Source: Mobula hypostoma | Lineage: Eukaryota | Reading direction: 5' to 3' | Assembly (NCBI RefSeq): GCF_963921235.1 | Contig: NC_086097.1 | Coordinates: 96,102,001 to 96,166,000, forward strand | Length of the DNA: 64,000 nt | Shown here: positions 1 through 56,100 of the stretch, in pieces | Position numbering within the stretch: the first letter of the stretch is position 1 | Layout of the letters: the number at the start of each line of letters is the position of its first letter | Program-made: the position numbers and the translations under genes | Notes under the pieces: model-generated | Database searches by the model: none | Seen by the model: the letters and a program-made list of their open reading frames with translations, nothing else | What the model was told of the DNA's origin: nothing

Positions 1-136
1 GAGCGAGGTCCTCGATGAATACTTCTCTTCGGTATTCACCAATGAGAGGGAACTTGATGACGGTGAGGACAATATGAGTGAGGTTGATGTTCTGGAGCAT
101 GTTGATATTAAGGGAGAGGAGGTGTTGGAGTTGTTA

Positions 137-512
137 CTTGTTACATACACCTGTTAGGGTGCATTCTCCAGTTACCTTATAAGGTAACCGTAGCCTTCAG
201 CCAGGAGCAGATGTCATCAGGTGGTTCCCAACCTTCACTGAGTGTTTCGACCCTTAACCACGACACTCTCCAGTTGGTGGGCTGGCAGTGGTGGCCAAAT
301 CACTGCCCATCTGCTCCTGGCTTCCAGCTCCCCTCCTCTCGCCTACTCCAAATCCAACAAGAAGCTCGTTCTGCCTCTTCCCCCATCCTACGAGCTGCTT
401 GTTTTTTGCTCCTTTCGTCCAGGCCCAGATCTGACAATAACCGCCATGCTGGTTTGGCTGGGAAACCTCCGCAGCTGATCTCCACAGGGAACAACCATGC
501 CTGCAATAAGAC
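137..512 (-). mobile_element. 3' end of a Hero-like RLE non-LTR retrotransposon (family A)
   Basis: Minus-strand ORF ends AWLFPVEISCGGFPAKPAWRLLSDLGL..MGEEAERASCWIWSRR, the C-terminus of Hero/R2-superfamily proteins, followed by a structured 3' UTR. It splits the CR1 reading frame EEVLELL|DKSPG. Confidence 0.8.
199..322 (-). ncRNA. Candidate non-circularly permuted hammerhead ribozyme in the Hero-A 3' UTR
   Basis: CTGATGA (220-214), GAAA (248-245) and GTC (264-262), with stem I gtggtt/aaccac, stem III gagtgt/acactc and a 15-bp closing helix. Same architecture as 13409-13527. Confidence 0.65.
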
Positions 513-8943: not shown

Positions 8944-9192
8944 GTTTGTATTGCAATGCAGTTATGTTATGATGAATTTATAACCAATCTATAGATTGGA
9001 TGAACATTCCAATTTAGTCTTCCATTATATTTGGCTGATCCCCCATTTCCCTTGTTAAAATAATCCCAGATCTGCTTATGCTGTGTCTTTAGTACTTTGC
9101 CTTGGGTGAATGGGGTATTTCATGACATGGGTAGCAATTTGTCTTCTGCATTTGGGCTAAATATAAATATATTAGTGATTATGACTCATGAA

Positions 9193-9785
9193 CGTGAGTG
9201 AATTCTTCAAGGACGTGACAAAACAAATTGATCAAGGTACAGTGGTGGATGTGGTGTATATGGATTTTAGTAAAGCATTTGACAAGGTTCCTCATGATAG
9301 CCTCGTCTAGAAAGTCAGGGGACATGGGTTGAGAATTAGCAGAAGGCAGAGGATGTTAGTAATGGAGCACATTCTGCCTGGAGTTTGGTGACTAGAGGTG
9401 TTCTACAACCCCTGCACATAGTGATTTTTTTTTTTTTTAAAAATTTGCATGAGGAAGTGGAAGGGTGGGTTAGTAAGTGTGCAGACGACATGAAAGTTGG
9501 TGATGTTGATCGCGCAAACGGTTATTGTAGGTTACAATGGGACACTGATAGGATGCAGAGCTAGGCTGAGAAGTAACAGTGCCATGCAATCTGGAAAAGT
9601 GAAGTGATTCACTTAGGATGGTCAAATGTAAAGGCAGAATTGAGGGTTAATGGCGTGATTCTTAGCATTGTGGAGAGCCGGGGAGATCTTGGAGTTCACA
9701 TCCATAGATCTCTCAAAGTTGCAATGCAAGTTGATACCTTGGTTAAGAACGAGTATGGTGTGTATTGCGGTATTGAGTTCAGATC
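9193..9785 (+). mobile_element. Decayed CR1 RT fragment
   Basis: gatgtggtgtatatggattttagtaaagcatttgacaagg and gcagacgacatgaaa; colinear with 840-1490. Confidence 0.85.
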
Positions 9786-11410: not shown

Positions 11411-13387
11411 CCTGTAGAGGACGATTTGACTGGTAGTGGAAAAGGCAGAGTTTCTGATTTTGACAAAATGTTTTTGTGTAAGATGTGGGATTTGGTGTAT
11501 ACTTATAGAGCAAGCAAAGGAAGTTGAACATTTTGGTTGATAAAGTTGTGAGACTGGGAGATGCATCTTGAGAGCTGACCTTATTAAGGGAAGGAATAAG
11601 TGGCAATGTGAATGTTTGTTCTGGAAAACAGAGACTTTGCAGCAGCAATGACTGTTTCTGAAGTATTACTGGGATTCTGCATGGTTTCATAAGATAATTG
11701 AAATTACCTTACCTGTCACTTGTTTATTTTTAACTTTTTGAGGCAAGGCTGGAAACTCAGGGCAATGCTCAAAAAAAAGGGAATTCTTCCAAATGGGGAG
11801 GTGGTGTTGGTTGTTATCTCCCTTAAATTATTTTTGTACACTAAAGCAAAGAAATAAAAATGATCATTTATATTGGGTTATAGCAGATGGTAATTCAACT
11901 GAAACTAGAACTTGGCTCTATGTTTTTTTTTAATACAGTGGTTCCTTAAATCTTCAGAATGTGTATTAGTTTAAGTATAAATAGGAGTATGTCTTTTCAA
12001 TTATCCTTGTCTTTTCTAAGAAGATTTGATGTGGCATTCTTTTAATGCAGCTTGAGTTTTAATTGATATTAGAGAATACTGTGTCTGCAAGAAATTCCAC
12101 TACATACTGTGCTATATTGTAGTAATTAGGGATACATTGTAAAACATCACAAAGATGGTGTAAAGGTATTTACATGTGTGTACTTAAGTGCAAACATTTA
12201 TTCTCCCCCCCCCGCCCCCCCCGTCCTCTTGCGATAAACTTAATGGAGTACATTTTGTTTAATGTGTCTCTTGTGGAGAAGGTTGGCTATAAGTAAGCCA
12301 TGGAAATACCGGAGGTGTTTTGGTGATTCCTTTTTATTCCTCCAAAGCAAATAACTAAAACAGAAGGCAAAATGCAGCTTTACAATTAGGTCTTGCCTAA
12401 ATTCAATTCCGATTCTGCTGGGAATGGAAGCTATGTTGTGAATCTGAATTAAATTTAGAAGTAATAAATGCCAGGATAAAAGTGAACATACCAATTTATA
12501 AATTTCTTGAACTTCAAAATTTCTATTGTCAACGTTGACAGCAGTGCAGGATGTTAAGTTGTAAACCTTCCCCTTTTGTAAGTGCTGCAAATATTAAACT
12601 TGTAGTCTGTTAAGTGCAATGAACCTTAAAATTCTGCTTAAATCTTAAATATGTATTAATCCTGTTGATTACACCATAAGTTTACTGTATTCATTGCATT
12701 GCGATATATCCTCGAGGTGTGCAGGATAAAATTGTATTTTGGCATGTTTGCAAGGGCATTTTCTGTTGTAACTGGAAATAGCAATGGAGTGCAGTTTTCT
12801 GTCAAATTGGCTTCTGTTTTTGTGATTAGAGTTATTAATTATTTGAAATGGAGTAGATGCAATTCAAGTGGTGCAACATGGTCTTTGGAGAGATTTGTCT
12901 TGAAGACTAATAAGTGATCTGACTGGATCAAATAAAAAGTGCAAATATTAGTAAATTATTTCTAAATGTGGTTGTGATAATAATTTGGGTACAAGTCAAC
13001 GATGATCACAAAATTTTAACATGGAAATAAGTTTGAACATCTGCTCATTTGTACCTTGGGTTGGTATTTTTCTCAAATAATCTTTAGATGTTTGTATGTA
13101 AGGAAGGGTGTAGAATTTAAATTAGGCCTCTCACAGAGAATGGATTTTTTTTTTTTGAGTAGCCAAGCAAGCCTCAATAGTAAAGTTAATTCCAGAATTG
13201 TATCTCCCTGCTAACTTAGAATCTATATATCTTTCTTTCTAAGATGTTTTTGACAGAACTTCAGTTATTTTCTCTTCCTCATTCTGAATCACTAAGTATC
13301 TCTGGAGCCTCTTACCTCTTACCCATATGTGTATATATAAGTATTCTTCCAATGAAGGGGACTGGAACCAGTGCTATCAAGACTATC

Positions 13388-14020
13388 TGTTGTGTACATA
13401 CTGATGCTTCTGGACACATCTTCAGTGATGTTCCTGGAATCATCGGGTGTTTTCGGGTCTTTCAACATCATACAACCTCCTCCAGGTGACCCAGCCGGGA
13501 CTGATCAGGCCCCAGCTTGTGTCCAGATGGCTAGCTGCTTATGACTCCATGGCTCCCCTCTTTTGAGCCACAGCCATCTTGAGGCCCTCTGTGCTGCATC
13601 GGTGGTACTACGGATGGCTCTCCTCTTCCTCTCTCCCTCGATGCCCAAAATGCTGAAGGCTCTAACTAAGGAACGGGCTGCGAATCCCCTACAACCAACC
13701 CCCTCTGGGAGACACCTTGCTGTCCAACCAGCCTGCTGACAGTTGCTGACCAGTCCTGTGTAGTTGGAGAGCTTCCTTTCAAAAGCCTCTTCCAAGCTAT
13801 CTTCCCATGGGACTGTCAACTCCAGCAGCACCACTTACTTAGTAGACTCAGACACTAGGACTAGGACAGGGTGGTGGCTGTGATACGGTTGTGGAACTTC
13901 AGCTGCCGTTCGAGGTCCACCGACAGCTGCCAGTCCGTTGCAGAGGTCAGGATGCCTGCAGATGTTCTTTTGGCAGGTATTCGATGGTCGGGACCGCTTC
14001 GCCCACTCAACTCCTATCAA
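13388..14020 (-). mobile_element. 3' end of a Hero-like RLE non-LTR retrotransposon (family B)
   Basis: WQLSVDLERQLKF..LVLVSESTK*VVLLELTVPWEDSLEEAFERKL..GCRGFAARSL..ASRWLWLKR is a restriction-like endonuclease domain; a 3' UTR follows. Confidence 0.88.
13409..13527 (-). ncRNA. Candidate non-circularly permuted hammerhead ribozyme in the Hero-B 3' UTR (decayed copy)
   Basis: CTGAAGA (13425-13419), GAAA (13454-13451) and GTA (13473-13471). Stem I tgatgtt/aacatca, stem II gggtc/gaccc, 10-bp closing helix. Confidence 0.6.
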
Positions 14021-35084: not shown

Positions 35085-37895
35085 TGCTAATCAAGAAACC
35101 AGGTGGATGATCTTGTTGCACGATTACAGATTGTCAGGTATGATGTGGCCATCACTGAATCGTGGCTGAAGGATAGTTGTAGTTGGGAGCTGAATGTCCA
35201 AAGTTACACATTGTTTTGGAGGGATAGGAAGGTAGGCAGAGGGGGTGGCATGGCTCTGCTGGTAAAGAATTGCATCAAAGCAGTAGAAAGACGTGACACA
35301 GGGATTGGAAGATGTTGAATCCTTGTGGGTTTCATTAAGAAACTGCAAATGTAAAAGGTCCCTGATGACAGTTAGATACAGGCCTTCCAACAGCAGCTGG
35401 GATGTGGACCACAGATTACAACAGGAGATAGAAAAAGAGTATCAAAAGGGCAATGTTATGATAGTTGTGGGAGATTTCAACATGCAGGTTGATTGGGGAA
35501 TATCAGGTTGGAAATGGATATCGAGTTTGTTGAATGCCAGCGAGATGGATTTTTAGAGCAGTTTGTCATTGAACCTACCAGGGAATCAGCTATATTGGAT
35601 TGGGTGTTATGTAATGAACTAGAGGTAATAGGGAGCTTAAGGTAAAAAGAACCATAGGAGGCAGTGATCACAATATGACTGAGTTCAACTTTAAATCTGA
35701 CAGGGAGAAAATAAAGTCTGACATAGCAGTATTTTAGTGGAGTAAAGGAAATTACAGCGGTATGAGAGAGGAATTGGCCAAAATAAATTGGAAGGAGATG
35801 TTGGCAGGGATAGCAGCAGAGCAGCAATGGTGTGAGTTTCTGGGGAAAAAATGAGGAAGATGCAAGATAGATGTATTCCAAAAAACTAAGAAATACTCAA
35901 ATGGCAATATAGTACAGCCGTGGCTAACAAGGGAAGTCAAAGCTAATGTAAAAGCAAACGAGTACAACAAAACAAAAAATTAGTTGCAAGAGAGGATTGG
36001 GAAGCTTTTAAAAACCTAGAGAGTAACTAAAAGAATCATTAGGAGGGAAAAAATGAAATATAAAAGCAAGCTAGCAAAACATATCAAAGTGGATAGTAAA
36101 AACTTTTTCAACTATAAAAAAAAGCTGAGAGTGGATATAGGACTGCTAGAAAATGAGGCCAGAGAAATAATAATGGCGGACAAGGAGACAGCAGATGAAC
36201 TAAATGAGTATTTTGCATCGGTCTTTACTGTGGAAGACACTAGCAGTGTGTCAGACGTTGAAGGGTGAGAGGGAAAAGAAGTGAGTGCAGTTACTGTTAC
36301 AAGGGAGAAGGTATTCAAAAAACTGAAAGACCAAAGGGTACATAAATCACCCGGACCAGATGAACTTCACCCCAGGGTTCAGAAAGAGGTAGTGGTAGAG
36401 AATGTGGAGCCATTAGTAATGATCTTTCAAAAAAAAAATCATAGGACTCTGGCATGGTGCCAGAGGACTGGAAAATTGTAAATGTCACTCCACTCTTTTA
36501 AGAAAGGAGGAAGGCAGCAGAAAGGAAATTATAGACCAGTTAGCCTGACCTCAGTGGTTGGGAAGATATTGGAGTCAAATGTTAAGGACGAGGTTTTGGA
36601 GTACTTGGTGACACAGGATAAGATAGGATAAAGTCAGCATGGTTTTCTTAAGGGAAAATCTTGCCTGACAAACCTGTTGGAATTCTTTGAGATTACAAGT
36701 AGGATAGATAAAGGGGATGCAGTGGATATTGTATATTTGGACTTTCAGAAGGCCTTTGACAAGGTGCCACACATGAGGCTGCTTACTAAGTTAAGAGCCC
36801 ATGGTATTACAGGAAAGTTGCTAGCATGGTCAAAGCATTGGTAGGAGGCAGCAAGTGGGAATAAAGGGATCCTTTTTTGGTTGGCTGCCAGTGACTAGTG
36901 GTATTCTGCAGGGGTTAGTGTTGGTACCAAATTTTATGCTGTATATCAATGAGTTAGATGATGGAATAGATGGTTTTGTTGCCAAGTTTGCAGATGATTC
37001 AAAGACTGGTGGAAACATGTAGGCTGCAGAGGACTTAGATTAGGAGAATGGGCAAGAAAGTGGCAAATGATATGCAATGTTGAAAAATACATGGTCATGT
37101 ACTTTAGTAGAAGAAATAAATGTGCAGATTATTTTCTAAATGGGGAGAAAATCCAAAATTCTGGATGCAAAGGGACTTGGGAGTCCTTATACAGAACACC
37201 CTAAAAGTTAACTTGCAAGTAGAGTCAGTGGTGAGGAAGGCAAATGCAATGTTAGCATTCATTTCAGGAGGTCTAGAATACAAGAGCAGGGGTGTGATAC
37301 TGAGGCTTTATAAGGCACTGGTGAGGCCTCACCTTGAGTATTGTGAACAGTTCTGGGCTCCTCATCTAAGTAAAGTTGTGCTGGCATTGTGAAGGGTTTA
37401 GAGGAGGTTCACAAGGATGATTCCGGGAACGAAAGTGTTATCAGACGAAGGATGTTTGATAGCTGTGGGTCTGTACTTGCTGGGATTTAGAAGGATGAGG
37501 GGGGGATCTCATTGAAACCTTTTGAATGTTAAAAGGCCTAGACGGAGTAAATGTGGAAAGGATGTTTCCCATGGTGGGAGGTTCTAGGACGAGAGGACAC
37601 AGCCTCAGGATAGAGGGGTGTCCATTTAAAACAAAGATGCGAATAAATTTCTTTAGCCAGAGGGTGGTGAAGTTGGGGAATTTATTACCATAGGTACCTG
37701 TGGAGGCCAGGTCATAGGGTGTATTTAAAGCAGAGCTTGATAGATTCCTGATTGTGCATGGCATCGAAGGTTACAGGAAGAAGGCCAGGGAATGGGGCTG
37801 AGGAGGGGGTAAAAATAAAGAGATTAGCCATGATTGAATGGTGGTGCAGACTCAATGGGCCAAATGGCCTATTTCTTCTCCTAAGTCTTGGGGTC
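35085..37895 (+). mobile_element. CR1 ORF2 (endonuclease + RT) and 3' UTR, decayed
   Basis: YDVAITESWL, YRPSNS, VGDFN, KSPGPDELHPRV, DFQKAFDKV, FADD, RPHLEYC. Confidence 0.95.
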
Positions 37896-39723: not shown

Positions 39724-42700
39724 TACCAGAAGACAAAGGAGCAGAAGTCGGCCATTTGGCCCGTCGAGTCTGCTCCGCCATTTTATCATGAGCTGATCCA
39801 TTTTCCCATTTCGTCCCACTCCCCTGCCTTCTCATCATAACCTTTGATGCCCTGGCTACTCAGATACCTATCAATCTCTGCCTTAAATATACCCAATGAC
39901 TTGGCCTCCACTGCTGCCCATGGCAACAAATTCCACAGATTCACCACCCTCTGGCTAAAAAAATTTCTTTGCATCTCTGTTCTGAATGGGCGCCCTTCAA
40001 TCCTTAAGTCATGCCCTCTCGTACTAGACTCCCCCACCATGGGAAACAACTTTGCCGCATCTACTCTGTCCATGCCTTTCAACATACAAAATGTTTCTAT
40101 GAGGTCTCCCCTCCTTCTTCTAAACTCCAAGGAATACAGCATAAGAGCGGACAAACATTCCTCATATGTTAACCCTCTCATTCCCGGAATCATTCTAGTG
40201 AATCTTCTCTGTACCCTCTCCAACGTCAGCACATCCTTTCTTAAATAAGGAGACCAAAACTGCCCACAGTACTCCAAGTGAGGTCTCACCAGTGCCTTAT
40301 AGAGCCTCAACATCACATCCCTGCTCCTATACTCTATTCCCCTAGAAATGAATGCCAATATTGCATTCGCCTTCTTCACCACCAATTCAACCTGGAGGTT
40401 AACCTTAAGGGTATCCTATACGAGGACTCCCAAGTCCCGCTGCATCTCAGAACTTTGAATTCTTTCCCTATTTAAATAATAGTCTGCCCGTTTATTTTTT
40501 CTGCCAAAGTGCATAACCATACACTTTCCAACATTGTATTTCATTTGTCACTTCTTTGCCCATTCTTCCAATCTATCCAAGTCTCTCTGCAGACTCTGTT
40601 TCCTCAACACTACCAGCCCCTCCACCTATCTTCGTATCGTCCGCAAACTTAGCCACAAAGCCATCTATTCCATAATCCAAATCGTTGATGTATAATGTAA
40701 AAAGAAGCGGTCCCAACATGGACCCCTGTGGAGCACCACTGGTAACCGGCAGCCAACCAGAATAGGTTCCCTTTATTCCCACTCTCTGTTTTCTGCCAAT
40801 CAGCCAATGCTCTATCCACATATGTAACTTTCCCGTAATTCCATGGGCTCTTATCTTGTTAAGTAGCCTCATGTGTGGCACCTTGTCAAAGGCCTTCTGA
40901 AAATCCAAATATAGAACATCCACTACATCTCCCTTGACTAGCCTACTTGTAATTTCCTCAAAAATTGTAATAGGTTTGTCAGGCAGGATTTTCCTTTAAG
41001 GAAACTATGCTGAGTTCTGCCTATCTTGTCATATGCCTCCAGGTACTCTGTAACCTCATCCTTGATAATCGACTCCAACAACTTCCTAACCACCGATGTC
41101 AAGCTAACAGGTCTATAATTTCCTTTTTGATTCCTTGCCCCCTTCTTAACTACTAGAGTGACACTTGCAATCTTCCAGTCCTCCGGAACCATGCCAGAAT
41201 CTATCGACTTTTGAAAGATCATCACTAATGCCTCCGCAATCTCCACAGCTACTTCCTTCAGAACACGAGGGTGCATTCCATCTGGTCCGGGAGATTTATC
41301 TACCTTTAGACTATTCAGCTTCCTGAGTACTTTCTCTGTCATAATTGTGACTGCGCACACTTCTCTTCTCTGCCACCCTTGAGTGTCCGGTATACTGCTG
41401 AAGTCTTCCTCAGTGAAGACTGATGCAAAATACTCGTTCAGTTCCTCTGCCATCTCCTTATCTCCCATTACAATTTCTCCAGCATCATTTCTATCAGTCC
41501 TATATCTACTCTCACCTGTCTTTTACTCTTTATATACTTGAAAAAGCTTTTAGTATCCTCTTTGATATTATCTGCTAGCTTCCTTTCATAGTTGATCTTT
41601 TCCCTCTTAATGACTTTCTTAGTTTCCTTTTGTAAGTTTTTTAAAACTTCCCAATCCTCTGTCTTCCCACTAATTTTTGCTTCCTTGTTTGCCCTCTCCT
41701 TTGCTTTAACTTTGGCTTTGACTTCTCTTGTCAGCCATGGTTGCATCCTTTTTCCATTCGAAAATTTCTTCTTTTTTGGAATATACCTGTCTTGCACCTT
41801 CCTCACTTCTCACATAAACTCCAGCCACTGCTGCTCTGCCATCCTTCCCGCCAGTGTCCTTTTCCAGTCAACTTTGGCCAGTTCTCCTCTCATGCCACGG
41901 TAATTCCCTTTACTCCACTGAAATACCGACATGTCAGATTTCGGCTTCTCTTTTTCAAATTTCACAGTGAACTCTATCATGTTAAGATCATTGCCTCCTA
42001 AGGGTTCCTTCACCTCAATCTCTGTAATCACCTCCGGTTCATTACATAATACCCAATCCAGTACAGCCGATCCCCTAGTGGGCTCAACAACAAGCTGTTC
42101 TAAAAAGCCATCTCGCAGACATTCTACAAATTCTCGCTCTTGAGATCCAGTGCCGACCTGATTTTCCCAATCTACTCGCATGTTAAAATCCCCCACAATT
42201 ATCATAACACTGCCCTTCTGACAAGCCTTTTCTGTTTCCTGTTGTAATTTGTAGTCCACATCACTGCAGCTGTTTGGAGGCCTATAAATAACTGCCATCA
42301 GGGTCCTTTCATCCCTGCGATTTCTTAGCTCAACCCATGAAGATTCTGCACCTTCCAATCCTATATCACCTCTTTCTAATGATTTATTATCATTTCTTAC
42401 CAATAAAGCCACGCTTCCCACTCTGCCTACCTTCCTAGCCTTGCGATACACCACGTATCTTTGGATGTTCAGCTCCCAGAGACATGCATCCTTTAGCCAC
42501 ATCTCAGTGATGGCCACAATATCATGGCTGTACACAAGATCATCCACCTTATTCCTTATGCTGCGTGCATTTAAGTATAACATCTTAAGACCAGTATTTG
42601 GTACTTTTCGCTTTGATTTCACTGCATCTTTATCACACTGCAACTCATCCCAATGGCTACAAATTTGCCCCATCACCTACCTGTCTTTCCTGACATCTTT

Positions 42701-53179: not shown

Positions 53180-56100
53180 CTTAGAAACATAGGTTTTCTA
53201 TACAGGCTCTTCGGCCCACAATGCTGTGCCGAACATGTACTTACTTCAGAAATTACCTAGGGTTACCCATAGCCCTCTATTTTTCTAAGTTCCATGTACA
53301 TATCCAGAAGTGTTTTAACAGACCATATCATATCCGCCAACCCATTTCACACACTCACTACTCACTGCGCAAGAAAAACTGATCCCTGACATCACCTCTG
53401 TACCTACTTCCAAAAACCTTAAAACTGTGCCCTCTCATATTAGTCATTTCAGTCCTGGGAAAAAGCCTCTGACTATCCACGCAATCAACGCCTCTCATCT
53501 TATACATCTCTGCCATCATATTTGACCTACCAAAATGAATCACCTCACACTTATCTGGGTTGAACTCCATCTGCCACTTCTCAGCCCAGTTTTGCATCCT
53601 ATTGATGTCCCACTGTGACCTCTGACAGCCCTCCACACTAACCACAACACACCCATCCTCTGGATCATCAGCAAATTTACTAACCCATCCCTCCACTTCC
53701 TCATCCAGGTCAATTATAAAAATCACGGAGAGTAGGAGTCCAGGAACAGATCCACTGGTCATTGACCTCCATGCAGAATATGACCCATCTACAACCACTC
53801 TTTGCCTTCTGTGGGCAAGCCAGTTCTGGATCTACAAAGCAATGTCCCCTTGGATCCCATGCCGCCTTGCATAGGGTACCTTCTCAAATGCCTTGCTGAA
53901 ATCCATATACACTACCTTCATCAATGTGTTTAGTCATATCCTCAAAGAATTCAACCAGGCTCATAAAGCACGACCTACCTTTGACAAAACTATGCTAACT
54001 ATTCCTAATCATATTATGCCTCTCCAAATGTTCATAAATACTGCCTCTCAGGATCATCTTCATCAGCTTACCAACCACTGAAGTGAGACTCACTGGTCTA
54101 TAATTTCCTGGGGTATCTCTACTCCCTTTCTTGAATTAGGGAACAACATCTGCAACCCTTCAATCCTCTGGAACCTCTCCCACCCCCATTGATGGTGCAA
54201 ATATCATTGCCAGAGACTCAGCAATCTCCTCCCTCGCCTCCCATGGTAGCCTGGGGTACATCTCATTCGGTCCCGGCGACTTATCTAACTTAACACCTTT
54301 CAAAAACTCCAGCACATTCTCTTTCTTAATGTCTATATGCTCAAGCTTTTCAGTCCACTGTAGGTCATCCCTATAATCGCCAAGATCCTTTTCTGTAGTG
54401 AATACTGAAGCAAAGTACTCATTAAGTACCTCTGCTATCTCCTCTGGTTCCATACACACTTTTCCACTGTCACACTTGATAGGTCCTATTCTCTCATGTC
54501 TTACCCTCTTGCTCTTCATGTACTTGTAGAATACCTCCATGTTTTCCTTAATCCTGCCCGTCAAGGCCTTCTCGTGGCCCCTTCTGGCTCTCCTAATTTC
54601 ATTCTTAAACTCCTTCATGCTAGCCTTATAATCTTCTAGATCTCTAACACTACCTAGTTTTTTGAACCTTTCATAGTTTTTCTTTTCTTCTTGACTAGAT
54701 TTTCAACACCCTTTGTACACCATGGTTCATGTACCCTACCATCCTTTCCCTGTTTCATTGGAACATACCTATGCAGAACGCAACACAAATATCCCCTAAA
54801 CATTTGCCACATTTCCCTGAGAACATCTGTTCCCAATTTATGCTTCCAAGTTCCTGCCTGACAGCTTCATATTTTCCCCATACTCCAATTAACCACTTTC
54901 CTACCTTGTCTGTTCCTATCCCTTTCCAATGCTATGGTAAAGGAGATAAGATTGTGATCACTATCTCCAAAAAGCTCACCCACTGAGAGATCTGACACCT
55001 GACCAGGCTCATTTCCCAATACCAGATCAAGTACAGCCTCTCCTCTTGTAGGCTTATCTACATATTGTTTCAGGATACCTTCCTGAACACGCCTAACTAA
55101 CTCCACCCTATCTGGGGAGATGCCAATCAATATTTGGGAAATTAAAATTTCCCACCACGCCAACCCTGTTGTTATTACTCCTTTCCAAAATCTGTCTCCT
55201 TATCTGCTCCTCAATGTCCCTGTTACTATTGGGTGGTCTATAAAAAACACCCAGTAGAGTTATTGACCACTTCCTGATCCTAACTTCCACCCACAGAGAC
55301 TCCGTAGACAGTCCCACCATGACTTCCTCCTTTTCTGCAGCCATGACACCATCTCTAATCAGCAGTCTCACGCCCCCACCTCTTTTGCCTCCCTCCCTGT
55401 CCTTCCTGAAACATCTAAAGCCTGGCACTCTAAGTAACCATTCCTACCCCTGAGCCATCCAAGTCTCTGTAATGGCCACAACATCATAGCTCCAAGTACT
55501 GATCCACGCTCTAAGCTCATCCACTTTGTTCATTTTACTGCTTGCATTAAAATAGACACATCTCCAACCATCAGTCTGAGCACATCCCTTCTCTATCACC
55601 TGCTTATCCTCCCCCTTGCACTGTCTCCAAGCTTTCTCTATTTGTGAGCCAACCGCCTCTTCCCCAGTCTCTCAGTTCTGTTCTGACCCCCCAGCAATTC
55701 TAGTTTAAACTCTCCCCAATAGCCTTAGCAAATCTCCCCGCCAGGATATTGGTCCCCCTGGGATTCAAGTGCAACCCATCCTTTTTGTACTGGTCACTCC
55801 TGCCCCAAAAGAGGTCCCAATGATCCAGGAAACTGAATGCCTGCCCTCTGCTCCAATCCCTCAGCCACACATTTATCTTTCACCTCACTCTATTCCTGTA
55901 CTCACTGTCACGTGGCACAGGCAGTAATCCTGAGATTACTACCTTTGAGGTCCTGCTTCTCAGCTTCCTTCCTAGCTCCCTGCAGTCTGTTTTCAGTACC
56001 TCCTCCCTTTTCCTACCTATGTCGTTGGTACCAATATGTACCATGACCTTCCTATTTCAGGATATCGTGGATGCAATCAGAAATATCCCGGACCCTGGCA

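Follow-up and report, generated by a model that had tools for sequence, protein, structure and literature searches.

A pseudoknotted fold in the 3' untranslated region of Hero-type LINEs is very probably a split variant of the type-SGC hammerhead

Hammerhead ribozymes whose conserved blocks run in the order S (cleavage), G (GAAA) and C (CUGANGA) make up type SGC of Eckert et al. 2023 (PMC10085705). Its members (HRIMA-1 and variants) come from metatranscriptomes, with none from genomes of known organisms, and they cleave in vitro at rates of 0.007–0.13 per minute. Among retrotransposons, Penelope-like elements carry a hammerhead in a repeated terminus and occur as partial-tandem copies, for which Cervera and de la Pena 2014 (PMC4209133) propose an RNA circle and more-than-unit reverse transcription. 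R2 and other long interspersed nuclear elements (LINEs) carry ribozymes resembling that of hepatitis delta virus (HDV) at their 5' end. Here we analyze a 64,000-nucleotide stretch of the Mobula hypostoma genome (contig NC_086097.1, positions 96,102,001 to 96,166,000; hereafter the window), which holds 5'-truncated copies of two families, A and B, of Hero-type LINEs, both with the same fold in their 3' untranslated region (UTR). We conclude that the 3' UTR of Hero-type LINEs almost certainly contains a conserved pseudoknotted RNA fold; that the fold, as judged from its sequence, is very probably a hammerhead and a new variant of the SGC permutation; and that it is probably the key to a rolling-circle cycle of these elements.

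The family B copy (13387..14017, minus strand; 5' limit approximate) was delimited by translation and sequence and consists of the end of a restriction-like endonuclease (RLE) domain plus the 3' UTR. It is a decayed and truncated relic, 94–97% identical to other genomic copies, and the place where the open reading frames (ORFs) of sister copies stop (13535..13537) is a sense codon. The fold then follows on the minus strand, beginning with the 5' strand of helix X (13518..13527), hairpin Y (13493..13517, flush with X and with stem II), the 5' strand of stem II (13488..13492), which starts with G10.1 and is supplied from upstream, and the 5' strand of helix Z (13481..13486). By position, Z corresponds to the stem I–II interaction helix in the type-SGC structures (PMC10085705). 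Block S (13464..13477) comprises the stem III 5' strand, GUA and the stem I 5' strand, with stem III at 13477–13472, A17 at 13471 and stem I at 13470–13464; by analogy, the predicted cut lies between 13471 and 13470. Block G (13445..13459) is made up of the stem II 3' strand (13459–13455), GAAA with one private extra A (13454–13450) and the stem III 3' strand. It is followed (13419..13438) by the 3' strands of Z (13438–13433) and stem I (13432–13426) and the CUGAAGA core (13425–13419), then, directly after A9, by the 3' strand of helix X (13409..13418), and finally by the element tail and priming end (13387..13408), which is 6 nt shorter than in sister copies. The family A copy of the fold (199..322, minus strand; predicted cut between 262 and 261) lies within an element copy at 137..507 (minus strand; limits approximate). 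Just past the end of that copy, window positions 131–136 hold a short re-primed repeat of the tail word, as do the ends of several sister copies.

An earlier reading of these letters by a model that ran no database searches (the sequence-only reading) had listed the segments of the fold, all of which are present at the stated minus-strand places, and the copy at 199–322 shares the layout of 13409..13527, as that reading had recognized. The stem letters of the two copies are only 35% identical. When fitted to a fixed-geometry model they formed 29 and 30 of 31 pairs, as compared to means of 21.3 and 21.9 (maximum 24) for 20 shuffles of each. Single-strand folding of the motif recovered X and Y only (z of −2.5 and −3.9), in keeping with a pseudoknotted fold.

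Across a comparison set of 30 non-redundant families with a stem identity of 42%, the six helices covary: 25–30 of the 30 families pair at each position, and at most positions three or four Watson-Crick types occur, with all four in X and Y (likewise paired in 25–30 of 30). We also scored stems I, II, III and Z in a MAFFT alignment of the 30 families that was built from sequence only and not fitted to the structure. In that alignment 88.5% of cells were paired against 60.1 ± 1.4 after shuffling (relatedness being not fully controlled in this comparison), double-change cells numbered 171 against 53, and the covariation score was 0.69, against 0.19 when shuffled and at most 0.17 when slid. Within the three stems that abut the core (I, II and III), 85–96% of cells were paired, with 4 pairs per stem changed on both sides. 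The proposal of a Hero-type family with a selected six-helix structure, compensatory changes and a preserved hammerhead core, originally made from two copies, is thus carried by 30 families.

The core letters are those of a hammerhead. Ten constrained letters (C3–A6, G8, A9, G12–A14 and A15.1) were kept in 30 of 30 families and U16.1, paired with A15.1, in 29 of 30, and the core was invariant in the MAFFT alignment as well. Three further features were not forced by the search: position 17 was never G (A in 11 families, C in 11, U in 8), while chance controls had G there in 6 of 38; N7 was free across families; and 10.1–11.1 was a G-C pair in 23 of 30 families, its G lying ~40 nt upstream. PMC3088659 names this last pair the most conserved after 15.1–16.1. 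A non-G at 17, a free N7 and G10.1–C11.1 are all constraints of a working hammerhead, from which we infer by analogy that the fold is quite likely to self-cleave. A search against Rfam gave no match in the window and only weak, unrelated matches at six loci. Hammerheads of types I, II and III, which are circular permutations of one three-way junction, were ruled out, given the lack of an Rfam match and a block order of S-G-C.

That order places the fold in type SGC as defined in PMC10085705, which assumes that CUGANGA and its stem II strand are inseparable. In the Hero fold they are separated. A canonical stem II directly after CUGANGA paired at chance level (1.70 versus 1.69 of 4) and was rejected; the upstream strand, used as the stem II partner, formed 3.77 of 4 pairs. 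Block C (CUGANGA and then the stem II strand) is therefore not unbroken: the chain runs from A9 into helix X, through hairpin Y and on into the strand of stem II, without any intervening linker. The best scores came from linkers of zero bases at A9/X, X/Y and Y/II, with helix-trimming registers nearly equal. This arrangement would form a four-way junction, with helix X stacked on Y and stem II on the core, which would allow the active site to form. CUGANGA leading into helix X instead of stem II is what makes the fold unusual, and the sequence-only reading had not stated it.

In other respects the likeness to type SGC (PMC10085705) is close: the S-G-C order, a short linker from stem I to stem II, a full core, a helix that links stems I and II on their other sides (Z in the present fold) and a variable linker, of none to many bases, from stem III to the interaction helix are found in both. 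In type SGC, however, block C is unbroken, the stem II partner and the interaction strand lie 3' of CUGANGA and there is no multi-stem junction, whereas in Hero elements the block is split by the X/Y four-way junction and both strands lie 5', behind X and Y, with the stem II strand 5' of everything else except these two helices. Finally, unlike the metatranscriptomic type-SGC RNAs, the Hero motif belongs to an autonomous LINE of animals and is present in high copy number.

Two details of the window copies bear on their own activity. The sequence-only reading had described two stem III lesions in the family B copy and called it probably inactive. The extra A is indeed private (none of 29 other copies has it), but most family B copies carry the U-C mismatch: at this position 81 of 101 copies had T and 13 had G, and of those reached through the 5' UTR, a route that avoids query bias, 39 had T and 3 had G. 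Accordingly, the forecast of the family consensus was right as to GAAAC, which is the family B state, and wrong as to a fully paired stem III; a mismatch retained in the consensus, named beforehand as refuting, is what the majority of copies carry. Counted outward from the core, the mismatch falls at the fourth pair, and other families have the fold intact. Since the mismatch is not private, the extra A is all that is left to suggest an inactive window copy, and PMC3088659 describes a natural insertion within GAAA that may be tolerated. In the family A window copy, G10.1 is changed to A at a CpG. Among 56 family A copies the first base of stem II was G in 30 and A in 25, which, from the sequence context, we read as decay.

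The fold is not confined to this genome. A scan that used protein sequence and took no account of the UTR yielded 79 metagenome loci, of which 72 reach the end of the ORF; the other seven stop before it and were excluded from the 3' UTR analysis, and six of these, when later scanned with the model, gave no match. The fold was present in 58 of the 72 loci and was distributed over the whole in-group of the protein tree (a quick IQ-TREE result rather than a finished search). In 48 of the 58 it was found by a fixed-geometry model fit that scored above all 20 shuffles of the same locus, in three after longer UTRs, and in seven more via a covariance model. The fitted sequences (n = 53) all formed 27–31 of 31 pairs. 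As a control, a scan of viral contigs matched 120 stretches, and among the 79 of these that were scored, which have both core words by chance, pairing reached 18–25 of 31 and no true instance was found. Of the 14 loci without the fold, nine are cut off too early, two are broken copies, two belong to a distant outgroup and one is locus L197, discussed below. Three deep-branching lineages (L180, L194 and L210) have long 3' UTRs of 460–740 nt and keep the fold near the UTR end. A distant RLE element (L190:1503-2300 and L212) has an ORF that runs past the endonuclease into a ubiquitin C-terminal hydrolase domain (in L190, Pfam UCH, E = 1.8e-11).

The host element has a single ORF with a reverse transcriptase (RT), a zinc knuckle and a C-terminal restriction-like endonuclease (R2 superfamily). 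The putative RLE motif was recognized by its pattern in the translation. Both window motifs are on the sense strand, just behind the stop of an ORF with this C-terminus, and the motif sits in the 3' UTR, 86–126 nt inside the end that is copied first. The 3.48 Gb genome yielded 1,527 candidate copies of one family and 1,418 of the other, and 40 from each set were scored. Protein relatives among the matches listed were mostly from bony fish and amphioxus, with RT entries of Tetraodon and Takifugu at 65% and 59% identity; these entries (P0037 and P0091) are presumably the HERO/Zebulon elements. The pufferfish elements Zebulon and HERO would then be close protein relatives, and the title of Bouneau et al. 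2003 names a tandem structure for them. Insertion was mostly non-specific, with unrelated flanks in 30 + 30 copies, as in the description of the Hero clade (PMC4640811). In older B-like Hero subfamilies of the same genome (several among L226–L254), short deletions near the cut have arisen repeatedly between copies of a TGA or CTG word.

Near-full-length copies of the element are partial tandems, in which part of the element's own 3' end is placed before the 5' UTR, a construction that had likewise gone unstated in the first reading of the window. When the search was made with the 5' UTR only, most copies ran on into their own 3' end. The junction of tail and 5' UTR was in register in 22/22 family A and 22/22 family B copies (reaching at least 15 nt into the tail); the same junction occurred in 9 of 41 metagenome loci, with three contigs carrying terminal repeats at unit length. 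More-than-unit copies with two ribozyme motifs thus occur. The upstream repeat, up to 2.8 kb, starts before the predicted cut in 22 of 35 family A and 16 of 24 family B copies, which argues that the template was continuous there. Rare non-CpG variants were common to both repeats of a locus far more often than expected (28 versus 2.6 in family A, at 7 of 18 loci; 7 versus 0.37 in family B, at 4 of 10 loci; a permutation test was also made), and at L288 they lie on both sides of the cut. Such sharing argues that one RNA segment was copied twice. Ends also gathered at exactly one unit, with 4 of 28 family A and 4 of 37 family B copies within 2 nt of the junction (8 of 65). Terminal ends extending into 5' UTR letters were present as well; slippage on a short tail repeat could explain them, and they were not used as evidence. 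Two loci, L294 (G000:C1:127436200-127446100) and L288, are arrays of ~1.5 or more units, and in L288 much of the helix X 5' strand is missing from both repeats through a private deletion.

We propose the following cycle. A transcript through a partial tandem would be cut at both ribozymes, and the unit-length RNA would then be ligated; the element's RT would nick the target DNA, prime at the tail and pass the sealed cut site, and would often enter a second round, remaking the upstream ribozyme needed by the next generation. A circle made by cutting at both repeats would explain the in-register junction, the continuous template, the shared variants and the one-unit ends. The same cycle is proposed for Penelope elements (PMC4209133), which have a different RT, a GIY-YIG endonuclease in place of the restriction-like one of Hero elements, and minimal type I motifs thought to act as dimers, as opposed to the monomeric, pseudoknotted and non-circularly permuted Hero motif. 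R2 resembles Hero elements in being an RLE-type LINE with a self-cleaving motif that could free the element RNA; it differs in ribozyme class, in its 5' rather than 3' UTR placement and in its linear template. We slightly favor a circular template for the element RNA, and consider the reading as a whole (that a complete-core hammerhead self-cleaves and that the RNA closes into a circle reverse-transcribed more than once around) to have somewhat better than an even chance. Its extension, that the whole Hero clade replicates via a circular mRNA released by a hammerhead split by a four-way junction, with target-primed reverse transcription starting internally and rolling past one unit, seems to us evenly balanced.

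A number of observations weigh against cleavage, the circle or both. The invariance of the core is partly built into the anchor search, and the covariance model found single copies with damaged cores (L202, L204 and L217). Family B has spread with its stem III mismatch. L197 is an intact unit of 1119 amino acids with a terminal repeat but without the hammerhead core: its 430-nt UTR (L197:1148-1600) folds differently and has no Rfam match, and it might carry another ribozyme or none. A single locus accounts for 13 of the 28 variants shared in family A. The cut shows no enrichment of insertion 5' ends (around it, family B had 6 true ends, versus 16 and 14 in equal control windows, with 30/31, 30/33 and 24/24 matches examined), and an apparent cluster nearby, considered as a hot spot of 5' ends, was not upheld by the control windows. 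Copies that start near the cut amount to 2 of 30 unbiased ones in family A (at +1 and +2) and 0 of 24 in family B. This lack of an excess fits a sealed circle and, equally, an RNA that is never cut. The two repeats differ in subfamily markers at L287, L290, L292, L293 and L303, which is impossible from one monomeric circle, and template switching is therefore also needed. The linkage of 11 markers showed no recombination break at the cut. Finally, 5'-to-3' jumps on linear RNA could yield the tandems, the shared variants and the pile-up at one unit without any cleavage.

R2 RT performs template jumping, and the last point can be developed into an explanation in which the fold does not cleave and instead lets RT dock on an RNA that runs as a linear molecule from its 5' UTR to its tail, and tandems arise as RT jumps from the 5' end of an RNA to the 3' end of the same or another one. 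Complementary DNA would then pass the site with no excess of ends, the tail/5' UTR junction at which ends gather could be the true 5' end of the RNA, chimeric repeats would fit jumps between molecules, and a tandem without a core, such as that of L197, would fit as well. We nonetheless find this explanation doubtful. It leaves a full catalytic core, together with the non-G at 17, the free N7 and G10.1–C11.1, unexplained over 30 families at 42% stem identity; end-to-end jumps should give ragged junctions, whereas 44 of 44 were in register; and the clash of helix X with a canonical stem II vanishes once the stem II strand is taken from upstream.

All of the evidence for catalytic conservation would also hold if an active ribozyme only made the 5' end of a linear RNA, with the upstream repeat freeing the element from host read-through transcripts and the 3' copy blocked by protein. 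Such a ribozyme may also aid cap-independent translation, as the 5' HDV-like ribozyme of R2 does; self-cleavage by hammerheads of RNA viruses is reported to promote translation (PMC13725137), the start of a few family A copies lies at +1 to +3, and a conserved hairpin array follows in the 5' UTR. Most upstream repeats, however, pass the cut (22/35 and 16/24) with no pile-up there, and a linear RNA of this kind offers no means of restoring the upstream repeat or of copying a single segment a second time, so that we regard this possibility as unlikely. Slower action is conceivable too, since type-SGC rates are low (0.007–0.13 per minute; PMC10085705) and genomic copies stem from templates continuous at the site: the fold might be a slow or reversible brake that limits mobility by cutting the tail off some transcripts, or by nicking and resealing, with tandems formed via template jumps. 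It is unlikely that almost all lineages of a selfish element would retain a motif whose sole effect is to limit it, and the in-register junction would be left unexplained; we consider a brake highly improbable.

The hairpin array just mentioned begins the 5' UTR and consists of ~4 short hairpins with covarying stems of 3–6 bp, purine-rich loops and a recurring GAC spacer. It is present in families A and B (L286, L306) and in L140, L148–L152, L154, L157, L165, L169, L177 and L197, and is thus conserved across families, even in the one that lacks the hammerhead; its place in the tandem is immediately 3' of the priming site. We regard it as a candidate RT docking or translation element. Much of the window is occupied by another, older repeat family with RT-like reading frames (513–1500, ~9177–9763, 36524–37012, 40495–41013 and 53508–54285).

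Full-text searches, with subscription papers, Repbase reports and bioRxiv supplements mostly outside their reach, found no literature that links Hero elements to a hammerhead, a ribozyme or a circle, or that describes the split wiring; an earlier description of the Hero hammerhead may exist. If the reading favored here is true, Hero elements would contain a naturally occurring hammerhead wired against the rule by which the six possible permutations have been enumerated, present in thousands of copies in an animal genome and missed by standard descriptors. It would also explain mechanistically how the partial tandems of Hero/Zebulon elements arise, provide an example of an autonomous LINE that primes internally on a circular template, and bear on how template ends are chosen by RLE retrotransposons now used for gene insertion.
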